34,919 bases of DNA from a virus (taxonomy: Duplodnaviria > Caudoviricetes): IMG/VR virus record IMGVR_UViG_3300034106_003149, positions 1 through 34,919 of that record. One strand, given 5' to 3'. The notes beneath the pieces are model-generated. The model saw only the letters and a program-made list of their open reading frames with translations. It had not been told where the DNA came from and searched no databases. The position numbers and the translations under genes were made by a program. Every line of letters starts with the position of its first letter. Position 1 is the stretch's first letter. Shown here piece by piece: positions 20,986 to 34,598 of this stretch.

Positions 20986-21675
20986 TCAAATCAACTTGCA
21001 CTCTTTGCAGAGCCGCTCGTATTCGCTACCCTTCACCGGCTTTTCTTTGCTGGTGTTGTGGGTGGCGTTTGACCAATGGATCACATCGGCCTTGATTGCG
21101 TGCGTGTATGGCGAGACATCTACGCCCCCGCAGTCGATGTAGCTTGGAAGTGTGGAATACTGGATTCCATGGCGCTGAAGTCCGTGATGAATCGCAAGCA
21201 TCGCCTCATGCCAATCACGGCCCGCCATGCCATCGGCCAACATGTCGCGTAGCCTGCCGGCCACATCGACGGCGAATGCACTACCCTCGGGGATTTTCAT
21301 CACCACAGGCGAGATGGTGGAAAGCCAAGGCGAGAAGGTATAATCGGTCAGGTCGAGCTTGCAGTTCACCGCGCAATCCATCTGCACCCAGGTTCCGCCG
21401 TGGCGGTAGAGTGTTTCAAGCGCGAAGTAATCACTCCAATGCGCGAAGCTGCCGATGCCGCCATTGGGAATATAGGCATGCGGATTGCCTGCGAATCCGA
21501 TCGGCTTCAGAATGTCTTTTGGCAGTTGCTTCACTTCCACGCCATCCGGCACGCCTTCCACTTTGCCTTGAGTCCACAGGATCACATCGTGTCCGTGATT
21601 TACTAAAATCGTGAGAGTTAGTTTTTCCATCAGCCCGAGCTTGGGGCCGATCCATACGGAATGCGTTGCGCTCAT
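20986..21675 (-). CDS. glycosyltransferase, DXD sugar-binding (GT32-like)
   Basis: 'HSVWIG', 'SFAHWSDYF..ETLYRHGGTWVQMD' match the GT32-type motif SD..R...LY..GG.W.D.D with substitutions. Confidence 0.75.
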   Translation of the reverse strand: MSATHSVWIGPKLGLMEKLTLTILVNHGHDVILWTQGKVEGVPDGVEVKQLPKDILKPIGFAGNPHAYIPNGGIGSFAHWSDYFALETLYRHGGTWVQMDCAVNCKLDLTDYTFSPWLSTISPVVMKIPEGSAFAVDVAGRLRDMLADGMAGRDWHEAMLAIHHGLQRHGIQYSTLPSYIDCGGVDVSPYTHAIKADVIHWSNATHNTSKEKPVKGSEYERLCKECKLI

Positions 21676-22838
21676 TGTCTTGAAAGAATTGTCAAGCCAT
21701 TGTTATGTTCGTAATGCTCGAAAAGCACCCAATGCGGATTGTCTCGCATGAATTCTTGAATGGCGAGATTGATGCCGGGGCCAAAATCCTCGCCGCTCAC
21801 ACCGAATGCCACGGTATCGTGGAAAGCGATATATTTCCTCGCTTGGTTGCCGTGTTTCTCAAGCTCACCTTTCACCTGTGCGTAGGTATGGAGCGTGTCG
21901 ACAAAGAGCATATCTGTCTCTTCGATCGTCGGCGCGTCGAGCGTCGAGCCATGTGCGAATGTCCAGTCGATTTCGATATGCGGTCGGATCGATGCATAAA
22001 GGTTGTAAGGATCGCCCAGATCATAGCTGCGAAGCGTGGCGCGGCTCTTATTGGAAAGCCCATGCATGAATGCGAAGGTGGACATCCCACTTCGCACACC
22101 AAACTCGGTGACATGGTTGCATTCGCGGGCGAGTTGCGCGAGCCGCAACAGGTGCGCGTGGATGTCGCTCTCAACGCTCCGGCATCGATTAAAAGTCTGC
22201 AAAAGCGGCCACATTTTCATAAATGTTGCGCCGCCGTAGGCATATGCCTCCTTGCTGTTCTGGTGTCGAACAATGGTATCTTCCGGCCTGCCGCCATTGC
22301 TTGGGTGATCATGGTTCCACTTTAGCCCTTTCACTTGAAGGATCGATGCCTCTAATTGTGTGCGCGCCGTGAAATCGTTGTCACAGAAAACGCCATAGAA
22401 GTCTGGATGGAAAATGTATCCTCTGCGGGAATAAAGCTCGCGAGAGAGAACAGGGTGGCACATCAAGCCATCATCGCGCACTGTATCCGGAACATAGCAG
22501 GCCCAAGGCAGTTTGCCAGAAGGAAGTTTACGAAGCTCATCGTCCCAGCCAATCGGTGGTGTGAGATCATCAGCGATCACGACAAGAATCTCGCCTGTTG
22601 AGAGTGCGGCAGCGGTGTTCCAATTCGCCACGCTCGATGATGCCCACTCTGGCGGCGGCACACTCACGCCATAATTCATGTCGCTAAAAGCCTTCATGCT
22701 ATCTTGATCATCGGCCTGTATGCCGAAAATATGCTCGATGTCTTCTGGGTGGCTTGCCCTTTCAAACCAGATTTTCCTTGTCGTTAGCGCGCGCACAGGC
22801 GTGCCACGGGTTGCGTGTAGTAGTGTTATTTTTTTCAT
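21672..22838 (-). CDS. GT-A glycosyltransferase fused to a class I SAM methyltransferase
   Basis: N-terminal HATRG...ADD...WD...FCDNDF; C-terminal EFGVRSGMST, FVDTLHTY, IAFHDT, NNGLTIL (Methyltransf_24-like). Confidence 0.8.
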   Translation of the reverse strand: MKKITLLHATRGTPVRALTTRKIWFERASHPEDIEHIFGIQADDQDSMKAFSDMNYGVSVPPPEWASSSVANWNTAAALSTGEILVVIADDLTPPIGWDDELRKLPSGKLPWACYVPDTVRDDGLMCHPVLSRELYSRRGYIFHPDFYGVFCDNDFTARTQLEASILQVKGLKWNHDHPSNGGRPEDTIVRHQNSKEAYAYGGATFMKMWPLLQTFNRCRSVESDIHAHLLRLAQLARECNHVTEFGVRSGMSTFAFMHGLSNKSRATLRSYDLGDPYNLYASIRPHIEIDWTFAHGSTLDAPTIEETDMLFVDTLHTYAQVKGELEKHGNQARKYIAFHDTVAFGVSGEDFGPGINLAIQEFMRDNPHWVLFEHYEHNNGLTILSRQ

Positions 22839-24511
22839 GTTGTTAATTTTTCAAAGATTGCTTTAGCGCGTTCACGCTCTTGCGGATCGCTGACACGGCG
22901 ATGCGTATCATCCACAGGAACACTCGGCTCGAAAGCAGGATGATGATGAGCGAAAACAATATCCCGCGCATCCACAATCGCGCCCGCCTTCGCCGCACGA
23001 ACGGTGAACTCGGCATCGCTGAATTGGTTTTTGAAGAGCGGGTTGAATAATGCGTGTCGATCATAGAATTTGCGCGTCACGATTGCCATTTGCAGCAACT
23101 CATCGGTGCGATGGCCGTCAGAAATTCGTAGGCACTTTTCTGACGAAATATCAAGACGATCAAGGATCATTTGATCCCAGCCCGGCGGGCATTCCCAATC
23201 GTCACTCATCTGGATTAGGATGTCGCCAACGCAATGCGATGCCGCCAAGTTCCAAGCGCCTACGGAACCGGCATCACCTTCCTGCGCCACGCCGCCAAAG
23301 CGTTGCAACTGCGCGGCGGTGGGATCATCTGCATCCACGGCAAAGATGTATTCGATGGCGGCAGGGTTCTTGGCGCGAGATAGCCACAGACTCATCGTTT
23401 GCACGGCTTGCATAGGCCTTCCCCTTGTCGCGTGAAGAATGCTGATCTTTGGGCCTTGTGAGCTATTGAGCAAATCCTGCTCAAGCGCGAAGGCTTCCTT
23501 GGCTTTTCCTGCCATGCGAAGCGCCCAAGCGCGAAGGCGCGTGGCTTTCCACCCATAGTATTCGGCGCGGTGCGTCCATTGCGGGAATGATGGCACGGGA
23601 ATCTTCTCCATGCGATCAAGCGCGGCGAGCGATTCTTTTGCCTTGCCTTGGTCGAGAAGAATTGATGCCTGCAACGCGATAGCTTCGCGGCGATTCGGAT
23701 CGAGCTTTTCGGCACTGGCGGCGAATCGCAGGGCCGTATCGCCATCCGTCATGTTGCTCATATTCACCATCGTCTCGTAGCGATGCACGGCATCCAGGCT
23801 TTTAAGCGCAAGAGATTCCGCGCCGTAGCGGATTGCCTGCTCGCGCTGGCCTTGGATCATTTTTTCGTAGTGCAGGTAAAACTTGATGTTCGGCGTGAAT
23901 TGATCGTTGAACTCAAGGATTCGCGTGTTTCGCTCATTGCTTGGGCGGCGCCCAAGCGGCGGCTTGTGGTGCGCGGTTTCGAGATCGCGGCGGCTCCAGA
24001 TTTTGATCGTTTTGGTTGGATGCATGTTCTCATGCACCGGTCTCCACCACCAGCCGCTCTTGTAGCGAAAGAATCGTTCCCGTGGCGCACGCTTGTGCTG
24101 CTCGGGGATCACATAGTCGGTAAGAATCCAATCGCAATCTTCTGGGCATTCTGTCAGCGCCTTCAGGTGCGGCTCGACTTGAGACTCTGGCAGGATGTCA
24201 TCAACATCAGCCCACATCACCCAGCCATCTTCGCCTGTAAGATCATAGGCAAGAGCGAACGCTTGATTGCGAGCGTTGGCGAAGTTGTCCAAGTGAAGCC
24301 AATCGGCGCAGAGTGGCGAGTTGCTGTATTTGGCGGTAACGCACCCAAGTTCCTTGGCAATGTCGAGAGTGCGATCTGGTTTGAGCGACCCTACAGCGCG
24401 AACGACAACGATCTCGTCGCAGATTTTCTTGTAGCTCTCAACGCATCGAGCGATGCGTTCTTCTTCGTTCCCTGCAATGAATGCAGCGACCAGTTTCTTT
24501 TTTTGGTTCAT
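22835..24511 (-). CDS. GT2 glycosyltransferase + TPR + second GT-A domain
   Basis: Start re-called at ATG 24511; NEEERIARC, FANARN, WADVDD, VHE (GT2); TPR-like 'LDPNRREA'; C-terminal HATRGR...SDD...FSDAEF. Confidence 0.85.
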   Translation of the reverse strand: MNQKKKLVAAFIAGNEEERIARCVESYKKICDEIVVVRAVGSLKPDRTLDIAKELGCVTAKYSNSPLCADWLHLDNFANARNQAFALAYDLTGEDGWVMWADVDDILPESQVEPHLKALTECPEDCDWILTDYVIPEQHKRAPRERFFRYKSGWWWRPVHENMHPTKTIKIWSRRDLETAHHKPPLGRRPSNERNTRILEFNDQFTPNIKFYLHYEKMIQGQREQAIRYGAESLALKSLDAVHRYETMVNMSNMTDGDTALRFAASAEKLDPNRREAIALQASILLDQGKAKESLAALDRMEKIPVPSFPQWTHRAEYYGWKATRLRAWALRMAGKAKEAFALEQDLLNSSQGPKISILHATRGRPMQAVQTMSLWLSRAKNPAAIEYIFAVDADDPTAAQLQRFGGVAQEGDAGSVGAWNLAASHCVGDILIQMSDDWECPPGWDQMILDRLDISSEKCLRISDGHRTDELLQMAIVTRKFYDRHALFNPLFKNQFSDAEFTVRAAKAGAIVDARDIVFAHHHPAFEPSVPVDDTHRRVSDPQERERAKAIFEKLTT

Positions 24512-24533
24512 GTCTAAAAGGGTTGGCTTGTCA

Positions 24534-24571
24534 ATAAAACAAAAAACCCGCCCTCTTGCAAGGGCGGGTTT
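24534..24571 (-). terminator. rho-independent terminator after the major capsid gene
   Basis: AAACCCGCCCT-TGCAAG-AGGGCGGGTTT hairpin followed by a T-run on the minus strand. Confidence 0.85.
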
Positions 24572-24598
24572 CTGCAAACAAAAACCAACTGTCTAAGC

Positions 24599-25558
24599 TT
24601 ACAGGCCAGTTGTGATGCGGATGATCGAGCTTCCGTCAACAACCTTCTCGGCCACATGCTGACGCACGCGGAGAACATTGCTGCGGCGGGCTTCGTCGCG
24701 ATAGGTTTCTGCCACGAAGGGAACCGGAGAATCAGCGCCCCACAGGATCGAGCGGCCAAATCCACCAGCGGCGAATTCGCCACCGGCGATGTAGGCAAGA
24801 GCCATGTAGGTATCGCCCCAGACAAATCCACCAGAGTAGGCTTGGCCCTTCTTGGCGGTGTTCTTGGGTGCGCGGCCAACGAGAACTTTCTCGACGCCGA
24901 CTGCCTGGGCAACTTCCTGCTCGGAGAGCAAGCGGGTGCTGTTGGTAGCAACAACGCCGAACATCTGGTTCTGAACTTTTGTGCTGCGGCGAACGCGCTC
25001 GAACAGAGTTGCAGACATGACGAGCGCATTGGGAAGCACGCCATACTTGGCGAGTTCCAACTTGCCAGCGGCCACATCGGCGGGAAGGTCGAATGTGGTG
25101 ATATTGGCCTCGGTGTAAGCGGCAGTCGAGCCAGTTCCAGAGATGGCAGTCAAGCCATTCGCGGCATAGGTGAGAGCGGCAACGCGGGCTTCGTGGCCGA
25201 TCTGAATTTGCGAGAGCAGCATGTCGGCAACGGCAACCTCGACATCGAGGAAGCGAGCCAAGTCGCGCTGCGTGGCATCAGGAAGGATTTCCTCAAGGCC
25301 GTATTCCGTGGCGGCAAAAGTGTCAGAGACAAATTTGCGGGACACGCGGGGATAGGCGCTGCCAGCGGCGATCTTCGTGGCATCGTCATTAAGAGCTTCG
25401 GACTGCCCAAGATTGATCTTGAGATATTCGCCGCTCTTCACGTCAGCTACGTAGATCGGCATGACTTCTGCGCCGATGAAAAGGTTTTGCTTATTGCTGC
25501 GGCCCTCGAAAACGGCCTGGGCAATGTCGCCTCGGATGGTGGTGGTTGTTAGTGCCAT
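24599..25558 (-). CDS. major capsid protein
   Basis: 319 aa after the scaffold and cement genes; AAGGA SD; followed by a strong terminator; lambda-E-like features (PNALVM, ETYRDE..RS.V.RVR). Confidence 0.85.
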   Translation of the reverse strand: MALTTTTIRGDIAQAVFEGRSNKQNLFIGAEVMPIYVADVKSGEYLKINLGQSEALNDDATKIAAGSAYPRVSRKFVSDTFAATEYGLEEILPDATQRDLARFLDVEVAVADMLLSQIQIGHEARVAALTYAANGLTAISGTGSTAAYTEANITTFDLPADVAAGKLELAKYGVLPNALVMSATLFERVRRSTKVQNQMFGVVATNSTRLLSEQEVAQAVGVEKVLVGRAPKNTAKKGQAYSGGFVWGDTYMALAYIAGGEFAAGGFGRSILWGADSPVPFVAETYRDEARRSNVLRVRQHVAEKVVDGSSIIRITTGL

Positions 25559-25936: not shown

Positions 25937-26812
25937 TTAGAGATTGGAGAGTTGGTTGGAATCGCGAAGAGCGATGTATTCGGCGGGATGATTGGTCATC
26001 GCGAATTTGATCGCGGCGGTCTTGCTGCCGAGTTCGGAAGTTTTCGCTTCGATGAGTGCCTTAAGGTCGAACTTCTCGACGGGCTTCTCTTCGGCGGCTG
26101 CGCTGCCCTTCATGGGAGCGGATCCGAAATTTGCGATGATCGTATCCATCTTAGCTTCAAGCTTGGAGATAGGAGAGGCAGATTGGCAGTTGCACATTTC
26201 GTCCTTTTTCTCTTCAGCCATTTTCTCTTCGGGCTTCTCTTCCATCTTGTTCTTGTAGTCGCCAAAGGCGGTCTCAAGAGCGGAGAGGCGGGAGAGGATG
26301 TCAGCGATATCGATCTCGTCTTCTTTGACGATCTCTTCAGCTTGGGTCTTTTCGTCTTCCATATTGGTGAGATTTTTGTCAACTGCCTTTGCCTCGAAAC
26401 TGAACAAGCCGGTAGGATTGGCGGCAGGGGTTTGGACGAGATCGGCGCTGTAAAGCTCTTCACATGATGCGAAGCGTTTGCCATCGATCTCGCGCACAGG
26501 GCCAGAGAAAGCGATCGAGATACCGAAGGTGTCTGGCAACTTCTCGGCGATTTCGAGAACATATTCCCGGCGCTCGGCGTTCTGGAGAAGGTTTAGATCG
26601 GCGACGAGTTTATCGCCTATGATGCGAAAATTGTCGCAGAATCCAACAATGTCTTTGATGCCCGCGCCGTGATCCAAGTTTACTTTCACACCGCCCGCGT
26701 AGGTTTCCGCGCAAGCCTTGACTTCGCGCAGGGTTTGAGCGTCCACGAAAAGGCCGTGGCCTTTGGCTTCGCCCACAGAAATAACAGAAACGCCTTCGAT
26801 GATGTCGCTCAT
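25937..26812 (-). CDS. prohead protease/scaffold protein
   Basis: N-terminal GEAKGHG, NLDH, FGISI, SADLVQTPAAN..GLF; acidic coiled-coil C-terminal scaffold region. Confidence 0.75.
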   Translation of the reverse strand: MSDIIEGVSVISVGEAKGHGLFVDAQTLREVKACAETYAGGVKVNLDHGAGIKDIVGFCDNFRIIGDKLVADLNLLQNAERREYVLEIAEKLPDTFGISIAFSGPVREIDGKRFASCEELYSADLVQTPAANPTGLFSFEAKAVDKNLTNMEDEKTQAEEIVKEDEIDIADILSRLSALETAFGDYKNKMEEKPEEKMAEEKKDEMCNCQSASPISKLEAKMDTIIANFGSAPMKGSAAAEEKPVEKFDLKALIEAKTSELGSKTAAIKFAMTNHPAEYIALRDSNQLSNL

Positions 26813-26831: not shown

Positions 26832-26875
26832 AAGAAGAACCCCCGAATTACGCATTGTTAAGAGGCGCGGGGGTT
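26832..26875 (-). terminator. hairpin with U-rich tail downstream of RNA element copy 1
   Basis: AACCCCCG (26838-26845) / CGGGGGTT (26868-26875), then CTTCTTTT on the minus strand. Confidence 0.5.
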
Positions 26876-26887
26876 ATGATAAAGGTA

Positions 26888-27145
26888 GGTGCGATGGAGT
26901 CCAGGTCGCTCGGCTGCTCTATGTTTGTCCTTGGAGTAATAACGCACGAATGCGCCAAGTAGGGTAGGGGTCAACCATGCGGATGCCGTTCTACCTCCCT
27001 AGAGCTACGACCAATTAGCGTGCCGCCCTCAATGCCCCACCGCAAATTGTTTACCCTGCCGCGATGCTCTTCCGGACAACCAGAAGCCTTGCCACATCGC
27101 GCTTTTCAGTTCCGAGAACCTACTTCGTCCGGCATAGGAACGGGG
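26888..27145 (-). ncRNA. candidate structured ncRNA, copy 1 (two domains: 27054-27145 and 26890-27044)
   Basis: Intergenic; homologous to 29880-30158; nested stems, UUCG loop and G-U pairs on the minus strand. Confidence 0.7.
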
Positions 27146-27150
27146 AAAGA

Positions 27151-27636
27151 TCAATCCTTGTATCGATTAACGATATCGTCAAGGTAAAATTCTTCCAAAG
27201 CAGCCTGCGCGAGCATCAGAATCTCAAGCTCATTTTCTTCGCGGCAGCCTACAATCTCGAACGATGTCGAGATTTCTGGCTTGATTCGGTTGGCTGAGAT
27301 GTTGGTTGCCATGCCCGTCACGGGAACCTGCGCGGAGATGGAGAGCGCCACCGGCCCGGCCGCCGGTGACGCCTTTATTCCACACACAGCAACCGCACTG
27401 GAAATCTGAACCTGCGGCGAGCCGACTTTGAGCTTGCCGGTAACGCCGCGCTTGATCTCGACAACCACTCGCTGACGCTCGCGGTAGAAGCCCCCCGGCA
27501 GATCGCGGGCCACGATGGGCGGCGGTGGCGGGGGGCCGCTATCGATCTGAAGCAAACCCTGCGAGCCGATCGAGAGCGGCGTCGGGCTTGGCAGCAAGCC
27601 CTGCGTGGCGATGAGCAAGCTGGTAAGAATTGTCAT
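27151..27636 (-). CDS. hypothetical virion-associated protein
   Basis: 161 aa with a poly-Pro linker; coupled to the upstream gene. Confidence 0.6.
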   Translation of the reverse strand: MTILTSLLIATQGLLPSPTPLSIGSQGLLQIDSGPPPPPPIVARDLPGGFYRERQRVVVEIKRGVTGKLKVGSPQVQISSAVAVCGIKASPAAGPVALSISAQVPVTGMATNISANRIKPEISTSFEIVGCREENELEILMLAQAALEEFYLDDIVNRYKD

Positions 27637-28421
27637 CAGTCGCGAGAAACTGTCGTCGTTGTTGTCCCATCACCGCCGATCGTTTGCGCGATCGCACCAG
27701 CGGTGCGGCTCGTTGGCGTGACGGTGAGCGTGTCTCCGGTCTTCAGCCCGTGGATGAGATACATTTCATCGATCTCCGCGCCGACAGTTCCAGTGGGGTG
27801 ATCGCCCCGCGTAACGAGCGGATCGCGCACCGTGGTGAGTAAATACTCGTCGCCTGCCGTCGGCACAACGCACCAGTTGGAATCCACGGTGGCAGTGTCG
27901 GTGCCGGTATCGAAAGCAAGAATGAATCGCGCCTGTTTCTCGTCGGTGTCTTGGTTTGTGACGACGATTGTTTGCCCGACGCACAAGGTTCCGATTGGCT
28001 CAAGCGTGATTGTATTCGTAGTCGCTGAAACCGTCTGTCCATCTGCGATGATACGCTCGTCGGCAATTTGGCGAAGCCTCTTCCCCGCCGATCTGTTGAC
28101 GTTGTGCGTTGCACCTGTGAGAACTTCATCCCACACTGCGTCGGCGATGCCTGCGGTGGTGGCGGTGGAGAGATCGTTCACAAGAATTTCGGCGCTACCA
28201 TTCCATGCTATAAAGCCAGAGGATACAGGAGTGATCGCGCTTGAATAAAAAACAACCTGATAGGTTCCCGCCGTAATTGCTGGCATGTCGCCAGAGTAAA
28301 ATCTCGTTGTGCCGACTTCGCCGCAAGTGATCGCTGCGCCGACCGTGATGCCGGTTTGGAAAAGTTGCGCGGTGATCGAAAGCCCGCTTGTCGGTTGTGC
28401 TGTGTTTAGTTCTTTTGCCAT
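27636..28421 (-). CDS. hypothetical virion structural protein
   Basis: 261 aa Thr-rich; 'IADAVWDE', 'SAGKRL' motifs typical of phage virion proteins. Confidence 0.65.
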   Translation of the reverse strand: MAKELNTAQPTSGLSITAQLFQTGITVGAAITCGEVGTTRFYSGDMPAITAGTYQVVFYSSAITPVSSGFIAWNGSAEILVNDLSTATTAGIADAVWDEVLTGATHNVNRSAGKRLRQIADERIIADGQTVSATTNTITLEPIGTLCVGQTIVVTNQDTDEKQARFILAFDTGTDTATVDSNWCVVPTAGDEYLLTTVRDPLVTRGDHPTGTVGAEIDEMYLIHGLKTGDTLTVTPTSRTAGAIAQTIGGDGTTTTTVSRD

Positions 28422-28426
28422 GCTTA

Positions 28427-28663
28427 TTAGTTAGTTGGTTCCCATTGCCGCTCTACACGATCCTCAAACCACACAACAACCGGATTCCATTCGCCAGACT
28501 CGGGTTTATCAATCTTTACCAATGGAATGATCGTTGGTTCAACCCAATCCTCCGGTGTCGGGTATGGAGCCAAGGTATCCATACGCGGGTTCCCCTCGTC
28601 ATCCAATACAATTGAAATAAGTTCCTTCCTACCGTCAGCGAATACTACTCCGTATGTTTTCAT
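28427..28663 (-). CDS. small fibre-associated protein
   Basis: ATG at 28663 (MKTYGVVF...); acidic, Trp/Pro-rich; follows the fibre gene. Confidence 0.6.
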   Translation of the reverse strand: MKTYGVVFADGRKELISIVLDDEGNPRMDTLAPYPTPEDWVEPTIIPLVKIDKPESGEWNPVVVWFEDRVERQWEPTN

Positions 28664-28673
28664 ATTTTTAAAA

Positions 28674-29765
28674 TTATGCTCCGTAGGCAACCTCTACGAC
28701 GTCTACCGCCGCAACCCAGCGCCATGTCTCTGACGTGATTCCAGTAACTTCAACCTTTAGTGCATCGTTGGTGTCGTTTGCTGTGATGCTGATACTGGTG
28801 CTTGCCGCTTCATCCGTGCCGATGGTATTCACGGTTCCTACAAGTGAAGTAGTTCCAGCGACATTCTTGATAGAGAACTGGCGGATGTAGCTTGCCGCCG
28901 CCGTTCCATCACTCTTGATGCCAGCGATGTTGATTGTGCCTGTGAGGTATTTCCCAGAGGGGATCGTGAGGCGGGTGCTGCTGCCGTCGAGGAATAGCTC
29001 GACTGCGCTGTTCGTTGTCGTCTTGTTGCGAAGAACGAAACGAGCGCGCTGGGCATCGCCGTTGGCTGCGAACCTTCCAAACGCATGGGCTTGCATTCCC
29101 TGTCTGTCAGCAAGAGTTGCAACACCGTTAAGTATTCCGCTAAAATTAGCAGTTGCTTGATTTCCAAGTGTTGCTGCCTCGTTACCCCCACCGCAAATCA
29201 CAGAGTGATTTCCACTTGCTGTCCCAAAATAGCCTCCACCAACATAAGAATAATTTCCACTAGCTGTATTTTCTTGTCCTCCACCAATTACAGAATACTG
29301 TCCAGAGGCAATTCTTGTATTTGCATTTTTTATTACCTGTAAGTCAACTGCATAAATTCCTCTAGCATTTCCTGTTGAAGCTGCACCAGTTGGCTTTGGC
29401 CCGAGGATGAACGCCCCCGTGCCTTTAGGCGATAGGACGAGGCTGGAGTTGGTCTGACCGGAGTGCTGGTTGGTGATGGCAATGTTATTCTGTGTAGATG
29501 TGGTAGCATCATCAATCACGATGTCGCTCCCCTGCGCCGTCACGCCACCAGTTCCATCCGCCCTTGGCACAGCATTGTCCACCGTGCCCAGCGTTCCGGC
29601 AATCGTTCCTGTCCCACCTACGATGACTTCCGCTCCAGCAGAGTCTTTAATATAGGCTTTATTATCACTCTTAATGTAGAGAGCCGCGTCTCCGCTGTTG
29701 GGAGTCAAGCCAGTGGATTGCGTAAAAATTGCGGCTGTTGCGAAATGTCGGTCTGGTGAAGGCAT
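28674..29765 (-). CDS. fibre/adhesin-like virion protein
   Basis: 363 aa; beta-roll repeats (ASGQYSVIGGGQENT / ASGNYSYVGGGY.GT / ASGNHSVICGGG) resembling YadA-head-like repeats. Confidence 0.7.
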   Translation of the reverse strand: MPSPDRHFATAAIFTQSTGLTPNSGDAALYIKSDNKAYIKDSAGAEVIVGGTGTIAGTLGTVDNAVPRADGTGGVTAQGSDIVIDDATTSTQNNIAITNQHSGQTNSSLVLSPKGTGAFILGPKPTGAASTGNARGIYAVDLQVIKNANTRIASGQYSVIGGGQENTASGNYSYVGGGYFGTASGNHSVICGGGNEAATLGNQATANFSGILNGVATLADRQGMQAHAFGRFAANGDAQRARFVLRNKTTTNSAVELFLDGSSTRLTIPSGKYLTGTINIAGIKSDGTAAASYIRQFSIKNVAGTTSLVGTVNTIGTDEAASTSISITANDTNDALKVEVTGITSETWRWVAAVDVVEVAYGA

Positions 29766-29879
29766 AGTCTTGTTAAGTTAGTTTTTATCGCTTGTGTTTG
29801 CAAGCAAGATTTTGTGTTTAAGATTTACGCTGCAACTCAAGTCTTGCTTGAACTATACAGCGATTTCTAAACAAAAAGT

Positions 29880-30158
29880 GGTGCGGTGGAGTTCAGGTCG
29901 CTCGGCTGCTCTATGCATTTCCTTGGAAAATAACGCACGAATGCGCCAAGTAAGGGTAGTGGTCAACCATGCGGATGCCTATCTACCGCTCGTAGAGCTA
30001 CGACCAATTAGCGTGCCGCCCTCAATGCTCCACCGCAAATTCTTTTCCCCGCCGTAATGCTCTTCCAGAATCCAGAAGCGTTGCCGCATCACGCTTTGCA
30101 TAGCCCTGTCCTCAATTTTGGGCAGTCGGCATTTGCATCGTCCGGCATAGGAACGGGG
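29880..30158 (-). ncRNA. candidate structured ncRNA, copy 2 (two domains: 30047-30158 and 29882-30037)
   Basis: Homologous to 26888-27145; perfect 10-bp closing stem TGCGGTGGAG/CTCCACCGCA; longer variable hairpin in the upstream domain. Confidence 0.7.
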
Positions 30159-30373: not shown

Positions 30374-30614
30374 TATGTTCACCTTCTTTCTTTTGATCCA
30401 ATATCGCATCTACTCGTCGTGTTGCAAGTTGTTTTTCGATGAGCTTCTTGGCGAGCAGCATGGCTTTAAGCCACTCCACGTTGTTAGCGAACGTCGCTGG
30501 CGCAGACCACAGCATCCTCTCGCAGCACTCCCTCCATTCATCTCTTTCCCTTTCAAGTGTTTCGCAGCGATATACAAGCTCCATCATCGCCAGCGTTTCT
30601 TCTATTCTATTCAT
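30366..30614 (-). CDS. hypothetical protein
   Basis: ATG at 30614 with GAGG upstream; overlaps the helicase stop. Confidence 0.55.
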   Translation of the reverse strand: MNRIEETLAMMELVYRCETLERERDEWRECCERMLWSAPATFANNVEWLKAMLLAKKLIEKQLATRRVDAILDQKKEGEHNG

Positions 30615-31878
30615 AACTGGCCTCCTCAAATCTGGCTTGGGACTTCACGAACCTTACCGGAATCATCGTGGTCGCTCCGTGGCGGTTGTGTGTTATTGTT
30701 AGACAATAAGCGTATGGGTCTGTGTTCTCCTCGTCCTTGTGGACTTTTGTAAAGGAATCGCAGTCCATGTAGAATGTCCTCGACTCGCGGACGGCCCCAT
30801 TATCGTTTAGCTGGGCTAGGAGGACAATGCAGACGTTGAGTTCCTTTGCGAGAATCTTCGCTGTTCTGCTAACCTCTGCTACCTCCCGTTCCCTATTCTT
30901 GGGATCGCCGGATGCCTCCATCAACTGAGCGTAGTCGACCATGATGATCTCTACCTTGTTCTCGGACACGAGCCTCCTGCATCTCGCCTTGAATTGCGTC
31001 ACTGTCATACACGCCTCGTCTGCAATGTAAATAGGCAGCTTTGAGGATTTTGCGATGACTTGAGACATCCTCTCGTGCGCTCCATGATCCAGCCTTCCGT
31101 CCAGTAGATCGGAGATATTCACTTTGGCTTTCTGCGCGATATACTTGTCGAGGAGTTCTTCCGCACCCATCTCCATCGAGATCAAGGCAACAGGCACGTT
31201 TTTCTCAAAAGCTGGGTTTGTCACCATCTGCAACGCAGAAGTAGTCTTTCCTGCCTTAGCTGCACCCGCAATAACGTGCAAGGTTCTGGGTCTGAATCCT
31301 CTAGTAGCCTGATCCCACCTGCTGATCCCCGAATCGTGACCGCGATTAACCGCACCTCCAGAGTTCGCTGCCTCCTCCCATCTTGTAATACAATTGCTCA
31401 GAACTGCCGATATGTGACGGTTTTCGGCATTTGTCGCACTTAGCGAGACAATATCCTTACTCGCATTCTCTTGCAGTTCTTCGATCTTCTTTCCTTTGTC
31501 GAGCGCGCCTTCGATCATTTTTTGTGCTGCGGCGTGTATCTTCCTGCGAACGAAGCACTCGTGGATATTTTGCAGGTATTCTTTCCAATGCGAAGGCGTA
31601 AGGCAATACTCTACGGTTTGGGTTAAATACTCCTTCCCCCCAGCTTCTTCAAAGACACCAGCCTTCTCAAGACTTCCTGCTACAGTAATCGGGTCTACGG
31701 CCCGCCTCTCTTGCCACAGGGCTAACGTAGCTTTCCAGATTTCGCGGTTGCCGAAAGAAGTGAAATGCTCTTCGGTTACGCGGTCAACGGACTTGTCGAT
31801 TATCTTCGGGTTTGTAATGACGGAGCATAGGAATCCCTGCTCCGACGCCAGATCGGCGGGTAGGTTGGTGTTCATCAC
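30607..31878 (-). CDS. dnaB: replicative DNA helicase, DnaB-like (second copy)
   Basis: Walker A GAAKAGKT, ISMEM, VDYAQL, REREVAEVSR, AQLN, VRESR, NRHG; N-terminal DnaB domain. Confidence 0.92.
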   Translation of the reverse strand: MMNTNLPADLASEQGFLCSVITNPKIIDKSVDRVTEEHFTSFGNREIWKATLALWQERRAVDPITVAGSLEKAGVFEEAGGKEYLTQTVEYCLTPSHWKEYLQNIHECFVRRKIHAAAQKMIEGALDKGKKIEELQENASKDIVSLSATNAENRHISAVLSNCITRWEEAANSGGAVNRGHDSGISRWDQATRGFRPRTLHVIAGAAKAGKTTSALQMVTNPAFEKNVPVALISMEMGAEELLDKYIAQKAKVNISDLLDGRLDHGAHERMSQVIAKSSKLPIYIADEACMTVTQFKARCRRLVSENKVEIIMVDYAQLMEASGDPKNREREVAEVSRTAKILAKELNVCIVLLAQLNDNGAVRESRTFYMDCDSFTKVHKDEENTDPYAYCLTITHNRHGATTMIPVRFVKSQARFEEASYE

Positions 31879-34151: not shown

Positions 34152-34598
34152 TTATAACGGTTCTATAGACGGTTCATTATAGACCCTATGAACGGGTTCA
34201 TACCTACCCCCTATGAACATGTTCATACCTACCCCCCTCTGAACTGGTTCATACCTACCCCTCCCCCGCCTTTTGCTTTTCGGTATGACAGAATACAAAG
34301 TTTTATGCTCCAGCGAATCCCTTCCGAGCATTTCGAGGTTGATCGTATAGACGTTGGATGTTCGCCTTCCTCCAACATCATATCGCTCTTCCGAAGAGAT
34401 AAGCCCAATTGCCTCAAAAGCGTGGAGATACTTGCGAACCGTTTCTTCAGATACGCCTGATTTCTTTTTCAGTTTCCGCAGCGAAGGCCAGCATGCCCCA
34501 TCTTCGCTTGCACAGTCAGCCAACGCGAGAAGCACAAGCCTCGCATTGCCGCTCGTAAGGCTTTTGTCGAATACCTCCGACAGAACTTTTACACTCAT
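34152..34598 (-). CDS. phage replication initiator, HTH_36-like
   Basis: 'ARLVLLALADCASEDGACWPSLRKL', 'TSNVYTI', C-terminal EPSIEP; internal iteron-like repeats. Confidence 0.8.
   Translation of the reverse strand: MSVKVLSEVFDKSLTSGNARLVLLALADCASEDGACWPSLRKLKKKSGVSEETVRKYLHAFEAIGLISSEERYDVGGRRTSNVYTINLEMLGRDSLEHKTLYSVIPKSKRRGRGRYEPVQRGVGMNMFIGGRYEPVHRVYNEPSIEPL
34188..34261. repeat. iteron-like direct repeats (putative origin)
   Basis: GTTCATACCTACCCC at 34196, 34221 and 34247, each preceded by TGAAC to form TGAAC-N2-GTTCA palindromes. Confidence 0.75.

Follow-up and report, generated by a model that had tools for sequence, protein, structure and literature searches.

What kind of RNA would a phage carry between its genes as a large, ornately folded module? 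The question is raised by a 34,919-nucleotide (nt) phage contig, IMG/VR record IMGVR_UViG_3300034106_003149 (positions 1 to 34,919, the whole stretch analysed, hereafter the window). Its genes lie on the minus strand, and it holds two copies of a structured RNA element termed domain A. Domain A is a new RNA family of a known broad kind, the phage accessory non-coding RNAs, found in an unusual modular cassette, and we infer its function from the RNAs that accompany it. The two copies are as follows.

26888..27044, minus strand: domain A, copy 1; closing stem 27044/26890, then a CC tail; 136.7 bits with our covariance model R1 (itself a training sequence), with the structure counts below
29879..30037, minus strand: domain A, copy 2; closing stem 30037/29882, then CCA; 150.5 bits with R1 (also a training sequence); likely part of a second phage

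Both copies lie exactly where a first-pass annotation, made from the letters alone, had placed them (26890-27044 and 29882-30037). Its estimate of about 90% identity agrees with BLAST, which gives 88% over 221 nt and 90-96% in ungapped pieces. The unit of about 155 nt that it delimited corresponds to domain A itself; the shared unit is larger, extending upstream through a further element, module U, to positions 27145 and 30158.

Our final tally of the family is 52 distinct cores in 55 core-plus-flank variants. Divergent members were gathered through relatives of the capsid gene and of a fibre-like gene, and with patterns placed on the true core. Patterns taken from the loop singled out in the first-pass annotation recovered mainly near-identical copies and few homologues. 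Because the single metagenome scan used such a loop-based pattern (2 true members among 19 matches), the metagenome diversity of domain A is under-sampled. The alignment, built from sequence alone, comprises 35 representatives that are less than 96% identical (mean 69%, minimum 47%). Members had to contain two anchor motifs to be selected, and broken copies and a 96-nt variant (L308) therefore stand outside it.

A structure model was drawn from these same sequences with the help of RNAalifold. Across the 35 representatives, 96.6% of 1399 predicted pair cells are paired, compared with 30-44% in slid controls of the structure. Compensatory changes, with both sides altered, occur in 20 of the 40 pairs, a count reached by none of 500 shuffles. 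Furthermore, a tree-based test found 59 same-branch double changes that keep the pair, whereas 5000 permutations of the partners gave 5.1 on average and never more than 21. Covariation, which the first-pass annotation proposed to check with R-scape, is strong by these shuffle and tree counts. Stems P1, P4 and P6 covary, and P5 is the weakest stem (84.9% paired). Support for the fold comes from this covariation and not from single-sequence folding, which is mixed (z = -3.30 for copy 2 and 0.05 for copy 1). Domain A is very likely a real functional RNA.

The minus strand is the RNA strand, since G-U cells far outnumber A-C cells (121 versus 19 over 35 sequences); these counts bear out the minus-strand fold drawn earlier and rule out a plus-strand RNA. 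From the outside in, the fold begins with the closing stem P1 (10 bp), followed by a CA bulge and two more steps of 2 bp each. These lead into a three-way junction, where a 4-bp hairpin (P2) and an ACUAA linker are found. The inner part comprises P3, an asymmetric loop, P4 and a second junction bearing the variable hairpins P5 and P6. The closing stem and the pairings GGUCG/CGACC, GCUCUA/UAGAGC, GGUAG/CUACC and CUUGG/CCAAG, all proposed at first pass, fit this family structure. In contrast, a 19-nt loop described there as invariant occurs in 3 of the 35 representatives, and its region is a variable hairpin. A 22-nt bulge, also called invariant, is found in 4 of 35 and pairs as an extension of P1 plus the small hairpin P2. 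The GCGG/CCGC pseudoknot proposed between them fares no better: a strict CCGC partner exists in 10 of 35 (24 of 35 with G-U allowed, mostly inside a variable stem), and the GCGG is itself used by P2.

At the 3′ side, GAGCGACCUG is conserved where its 5′ partner has changed (L244, L381, L540 and L308), an invariance that is partly built in because this 10-mer also served as a selection anchor. CC directly follows the closing stem in 27 of 35 representatives (CCT 18, CCA 6, CCC 3), and we rejected a conserved CCA end on these counts. The variant L308 (L308:6669-6764) is a minimal form that lacks P5 and P6 and retains P1, the CA bulge and the 3′ core; its 5′ side bears a near-copy of the core motif.

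Searching Rfam 15, a check also proposed at first pass, gave no match to domain A in the window at the gathering threshold or at E<=10. Nor did any family match domain A in 15 loci of relatives or, at E<=2, in 18 loci. The first-pass annotation had not recognized a tRNA, transfer-messenger RNA (tmRNA), 6S RNA, RNase P RNA or common riboswitch, and this is upheld: ARAGORN called neither a tRNA nor a tmRNA, and models for 6S, signal recognition particle (SRP) RNA, tmRNA and RNase P showed no similarity at E<=10. Known ribozyme models match domain A neither in the window nor in the 15 and 18 loci. BLAST against GenBank phages and plasmids returned nothing meaningful, and a literature search that covered subscription journals thinly yielded no description. 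A catalogue of viral structured RNA candidates (PMC10690425) gave no domain A motif match in four supplements, the portion of its files that was covered, and could hold domain A unnamed. The strong covariation and the missing Rfam match support the suggestion of a possibly undescribed phage non-coding RNA.

Three specific resemblances were also considered and rejected. A likeness of one segment to SRP RNA helix 8 is accompanied by no SRP model match, and the segment pairs differently here. Retron or defence-associated reverse transcriptase (RT) non-coding RNAs are disfavored by the lack of an RT among the 52 open reading frames (ORFs) of the window and of any R1 match beside 50 RT loci. A type III antitoxin (ToxI, CptI, TenpI) would be an array of short tandem repeats ahead of a toxin gene; the locus has no tandem array, and its neighbours match no toxin family.

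The genomic setting of domain A was followed through relatives of the phage, using the capsid gene as marker. The cassette site in the window is framed by these features.

27151..27636, minus strand: 161-amino-acid (aa) gene with no assigned function and no PHROG or Pfam match; the cassette begins just past its stop codon
26826..26831, minus strand: TTGACA motif, a putative promoter-like element that lies 13 nt ahead of the head protease ATG and persists in relatives with an empty site
25937..26812, minus strand: head maturation protease-like gene (PHROG 7015, E 1e-5), downstream of the cassette site
24599..25558, minus strand: major capsid protein gene (PHROG 1005, E 3e-30), the marker for relatives

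Among 73 capsid-linked loci, near-duplicates included, the site before the head protease gene is held in 60. Domain A occupies 22 of these, in 3 cases interrupted and in 1 case short. Another 31 sites are empty (17-37 nt), a different 135-nt module sits in 5, and in the last 2 the upstream gene is missing. On a capsid tree of 46 distinct rows, the domain A label changes at least four times on well-supported branches. Domain A is an optional cassette RNA gene, gained and lost by lake phages.

The different 135-nt module, closed by a stem, lies between the 161-aa gene and the head protease gene in one capsid clade (L268-L272). The interruption in L298 (L298:132-772; also in L299 and L301) is an insertion of about 630 nt, lying between 11-nt direct repeats, that splits domain A and encodes a 101-aa PHROG 419 protein, features on which we rejected a group II intron.

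Elsewhere, domain A is found after terminase or helicase regions and before terminators, other RNAs or unrelated genes, and in L426 it is inverted and divergent from the head protease gene. TTGAC lies just before its 5′ end in 7 of the 55 variants and an extended -10 motif in 3, and 5 variants have a terminator-like hairpin and U-tract after it; all motif counts among the variants are lower bounds. Only 19 of the 55 have the start of a protease gene no more than 260 nt downstream, and the tie to a downstream structural gene implied at first pass is not supported. The inversion, the promoter-like and terminator motifs of its own and the arrays shared with tRNAs and other RNA modules (described below) suggest that domain A is likely a trans-acting RNA, not a leader or packaging RNA.

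TTGAC(A/T) also stands 13-14 nt before start codons in the window (26831, 21695 and 20183, minus strand) and in many relatives, besides preceding domain A in several loci, and is possibly a promoter element for leaderless transcripts.

Domain A does not stand alone in the window, where each copy is flanked by further RNA modules.

27054..27145, minus strand: module U upstream of copy 1, a second conserved closed RNA module with no Rfam match
30047..30158, minus strand: module U ahead of copy 2; its middle hairpin is a different one
26838..26874, minus strand: abiF RNA (RF03085), scoring 43 bits where the gathering score of the family is 37; the phage record contains no AbiF toxin gene
29828..29862, minus strand: hairpin module S after copy 2 (z = -3.05), downstream of domain A in 6 of 55 variants

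One of these, the abiF RNA, is a 37-nt hairpin 13 nt past copy 1 and the only Rfam match in the window. The first-pass annotation had rightly seen a hairpin after each copy but had not recognized the one after copy 1 as a member of this family. Hairpins of the abiF type directly follow domain A in 10 of 55 variants. Besides the window, those above the Rfam cut-off are at L205:778-814, L286:5566-5602, L311:6670-6706 and L417:737-773; scores in relatives are 44-49 bits, and the one in L327 (36.2 bits) falls below the cut-off. The phage has abiF RNA in a single copy, to which domain A itself bears no resemblance. None of five phage records tested, four of them with abiF RNA, contains an Abi_2 (PF07751) gene, and none of them thus has a complete AbiF toxin-antitoxin locus.

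The toxin gene is found on the side of the probable host. A scan of a genome collection gave 1 true domain A among 9 matches, between terminase and portal genes on a contig of a metagenome-assembled genome (MAG) titled Verrucomicrobia, and the host of these phages is likely a member of this group. Among 121 genomes around this MAG, 16 carry abiF RNA above the cut-off. Fifteen host abiF loci were taken; the downstream ORF, scanned in 13, is Abi_2 in 10. Host abiF RNAs with no following Abi_2 match are found in L461, L462, L472 and L473, two of which precede type I restriction-modification genes.

According to PMC12373285, AbiF is a type III-like toxin-antitoxin system in which an RNA with abiF motifs neutralizes AbiF in cis and in trans, by direct binding. 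A precedent from phage is pseudo-ToxI of PhiTE, a non-coding RNA that mimics the RNA antitoxin ToxI and suppresses abortive infection (PMC3475682). Given these precedents, the missing PF07751 in the phages tested and the pairing of abiF RNA with AbiF in host relatives, the phage abiF RNA is likely a stolen antitoxin. It could also serve as a terminator. The same literature search, with its thin coverage of subscription journals, found no description of orphan phage abiF RNAs.

The remaining modules are more varied. Module U (92-121 nt, 10 distinct variants) is closed; its first 21 nt are almost invariant, its middle hairpin can be exchanged, and it lies upstream of domain A in 12 of 55 variants; further examples are at L427:948-1068 and L432:783-877. 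Module B follows domain A in 5 of 55. It is an RNA-like element of 110-190 nt with a long closing stem, seen directly downstream of domain A in L055, L014, L244, L215, L547 and L575. Several cases have ACC after the stem, some versions share the motif CAUCGAGG with domain A, and relatives of B stand upstream of domain A in L413 and L415.

A tRNA-like 5′ half precedes domain A in 3 of 55 variants, L381 has a weak tRNA match ahead of it, and in L205 the order is U, A, abiF, tRNA-Cys. L055 and L417 have, upstream of domain A, modules of about 150 nt shaped like tRNAs: they contain a large insert, and some of their parts resemble the acceptor, D and T arms. For these there was no ARAGORN call (L055) and no Rfam call. 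At least four more conserved non-coding modules of 60-130 nt occur in the same arrays, downstream of A in L256/L267 and L434-L436, upstream in L244/L417 and upstream of U in L003, L005, L205 and L327.

This neighbourhood of orphan antitoxin RNA, tRNAs and other RNA modules suggests, by analogy, that domain A is a processed, protein-binding decoy RNA, likely directed against an RNA-controlled anti-phage defence protein of the Verrucomicrobia host. We place the probability of this reading at roughly 40%. Under such a mechanism, domain A would be transcribed from its own promoter or excised from a multi-RNA transcript. It would be cut at the base of the long closing stem, after which comes a CC(A/U) tail in the manner of RNase P substrates. 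A protein would then meet the invariant junction (CA bulge, GAG, P2, ACUAA linker and 3′ GAGCGACCUG), with free variation left to the outer hairpins P5 and P6. The bound protein would be the RNA-controlled defence protein, with the RNA acting in trans as a stable decoy. A broader proposal, which we regard as doubtful, is that freshwater Verrucomicrobia phages carry modular all-RNA counter-defence cassettes. Their interchangeable processed RNAs (abiF, tRNAs, A, U, B, S and others) would each act against a different immune protein, and domain A against an undescribed RNA-controlled defence.

The working model for the domain A cassette is pseudo-ToxI. Pseudo-ToxI differs in being a short tandem repeat with a known target, whereas domain A is a single 150-nt multi-junction RNA. 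The large phage RNAs GOLLD and ROOL are likewise orphan, ornate RNAs, and domain A has no Rfam match to them at E<=10. GOLLD is named for its lake sources, and both are linked to phage tRNA regions and are several times longer than domain A. The T4 and T5 tRNA clusters yield stable non-tRNA RNAs from processed clusters, with tRNA-like ends; in comparison, the CC tail of domain A is not a conserved CCA. RNA anti-CRISPRs are small phage decoy RNAs found in accessory regions.

Several observations weigh against a decoy for host defence. No host counterpart emerged when the covariance model was run on four partly overlapping sets of 151 genomes related to the MAG (19 candidates scored in each genome). 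The only matches were the contig with phage genes from the MAG itself and a weak one of 74 nt (29.9 bits; L459, beside an IS110 gene) that we treated as chance. Beside RT genes, R1 matched at none of 30 top and 20 other loci, and it did not match beside 15 abiF loci either. DNA searches of host relatives with A, U, B and the tRNA-like modules, one of them over 301 genomes, gave only short, chance-level matches. With no host counterpart found, the decoy role depends on association with one neighbour in a minority of loci. The host assignment itself rests on one contig of one MAG. Furthermore, P2 and P3, of which P2 belongs to the proposed binding junction, have zero compensatory changes, and three loci carry an insertion-interrupted domain A and one a deleted copy.

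The evidence for a trans-acting RNA applies equally to a host-takeover RNA with no link to defence, one that would bind RNA polymerase, a ribosome-associated factor or an RNA chaperone, or use its invariant 3′ segment to pair with a host RNA. That the searches of host relatives found no homologue linked to defence also favors this explanation. However, domain A resembles none of the 6S, SRP, tmRNA and RNase P models, and its patchy gain and loss among interchangeable modules would suit an arms race better than a constant function. On balance we consider a takeover RNA unlikely, though it survives best among the rivals.

A new ribozyme, self-cleaving or processing, could cut RNA arrays or separate transcription units. 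In favor of one are the invariant junction core with a variable periphery and the positions at gene borders and in tRNA-containing arrays. Yet known ribozyme models do not match, and stand-alone promoter-RNA-terminator units offer nothing to process, making this explanation improbable.

We give slightly less credit again to a mobile cassette that is selfish or close to neutral, or to a DNA-level element, with a fold that promotes only the spread or stability of the element itself. Speaking for it are the clean pattern of presence and absence at one site, the occurrence at many unrelated sites and the existence of broken copies. Purifying selection on pairs and the strand-specific G-U pairs speak against it, and neither a mobility gene nor a terminal repeat was seen beside domain A in the flanks read.

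A cis-regulatory leader of late structural genes, either a riboswitch or an attenuator, would account for the nearby protease starts noted above and for a U-tract past the stem. It is very improbable, because domain A is missing at that site in 38 of 60 loci, is inverted in L426 and also precedes other RNAs, terminators and unrelated genes. It also lies upstream of the TTGACA motif that empty sites keep. Position and orientation 5′ of related genes are thus not constant, on which ground we rejected membership among riboswitches and cis-leaders. Least credible of all is a prohead RNA (phi29-type), or a packaging or structural virion RNA, since domain A, although often among head, portal and terminase genes, is absent from the site in 31 of 60 loci of the same capsid family (most of those records being read as flanks of <=8 kb).

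The presence of two copies in one contig requires a separate explanation. Three features bear on it.

28825..28937, no strand: likely chimeric join; a short shared unitig at depth 18.6, with a loose end at 28852 and a diverging continuation
28674..29765, minus strand: 363-aa gene common to both phage types; putatively fibre-like by composition, no family match
30607..31878, minus strand: second DnaB-like helicase of the contig (PHROG 19), on the side of the second phage

The first-pass annotation read the copies as a duplication. They are probably not from one genome; rather, the window is probably a chimeric assembly of two co-occurring phages, one of the G005 type and a second one. Positions 1-29064 match G005, a complete 37-kb record, at 98.6-100%; this record goes on into a portal gene, and it also contains terminase genes and a single domain A. 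The region from 29.6 to 34.9 kb matches other phages (G003, G004 and L204) piecewise at 85-99%. The window contains two DnaB helicase/initiator modules, and a PHROG scan found no portal or large terminase match in it. In the best DNA run (X1), the portal side of G005 is present with no differences at a depth of 11-13, equal to that of the window's left part, and the right part is at a depth of 14-18. The depths, the loose end and the G005 match together look like two phages that cross where they share a stretch of sequence. Besides the window, none of the loci collected had a second copy, most loci being partial, and all 10 records searched gave one domain A match each. A natural recombinant retains a small share of the probability, since the join is spanned by none of the contigs listed. 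Even so, the two copies show exchange of the U+A cassette between unlike phages, and this is a case of a 'duplication' in a viral contig that mis-assembly likely produced.

Two further features of the window lie apart from domain A. Three direct repeats of about 26 nt (34184-34261) sit inside the replication initiator gene; they are iteron-like and may mark the origin. Two glycosyltransferase-like genes (21672-24577, minus strand) come directly after the capsid gene.

To our knowledge, the counter-defences described for phages are almost all proteins, and only a few cases of RNA mimicry are known. The swappable RNA cassettes described here, one member of which matches the antitoxin from a defence system that occurs in the probable host group, provide a directly testable candidate RNA mimic. 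Even without a decoy function, domain A is a well-covarying RNA family missing from Rfam. If the broader proposal of all-RNA counter-defence cassettes is true, domain A would be a decoy for an undescribed RNA-controlled defence and would be usable as bait for RNA-binding immune proteins.

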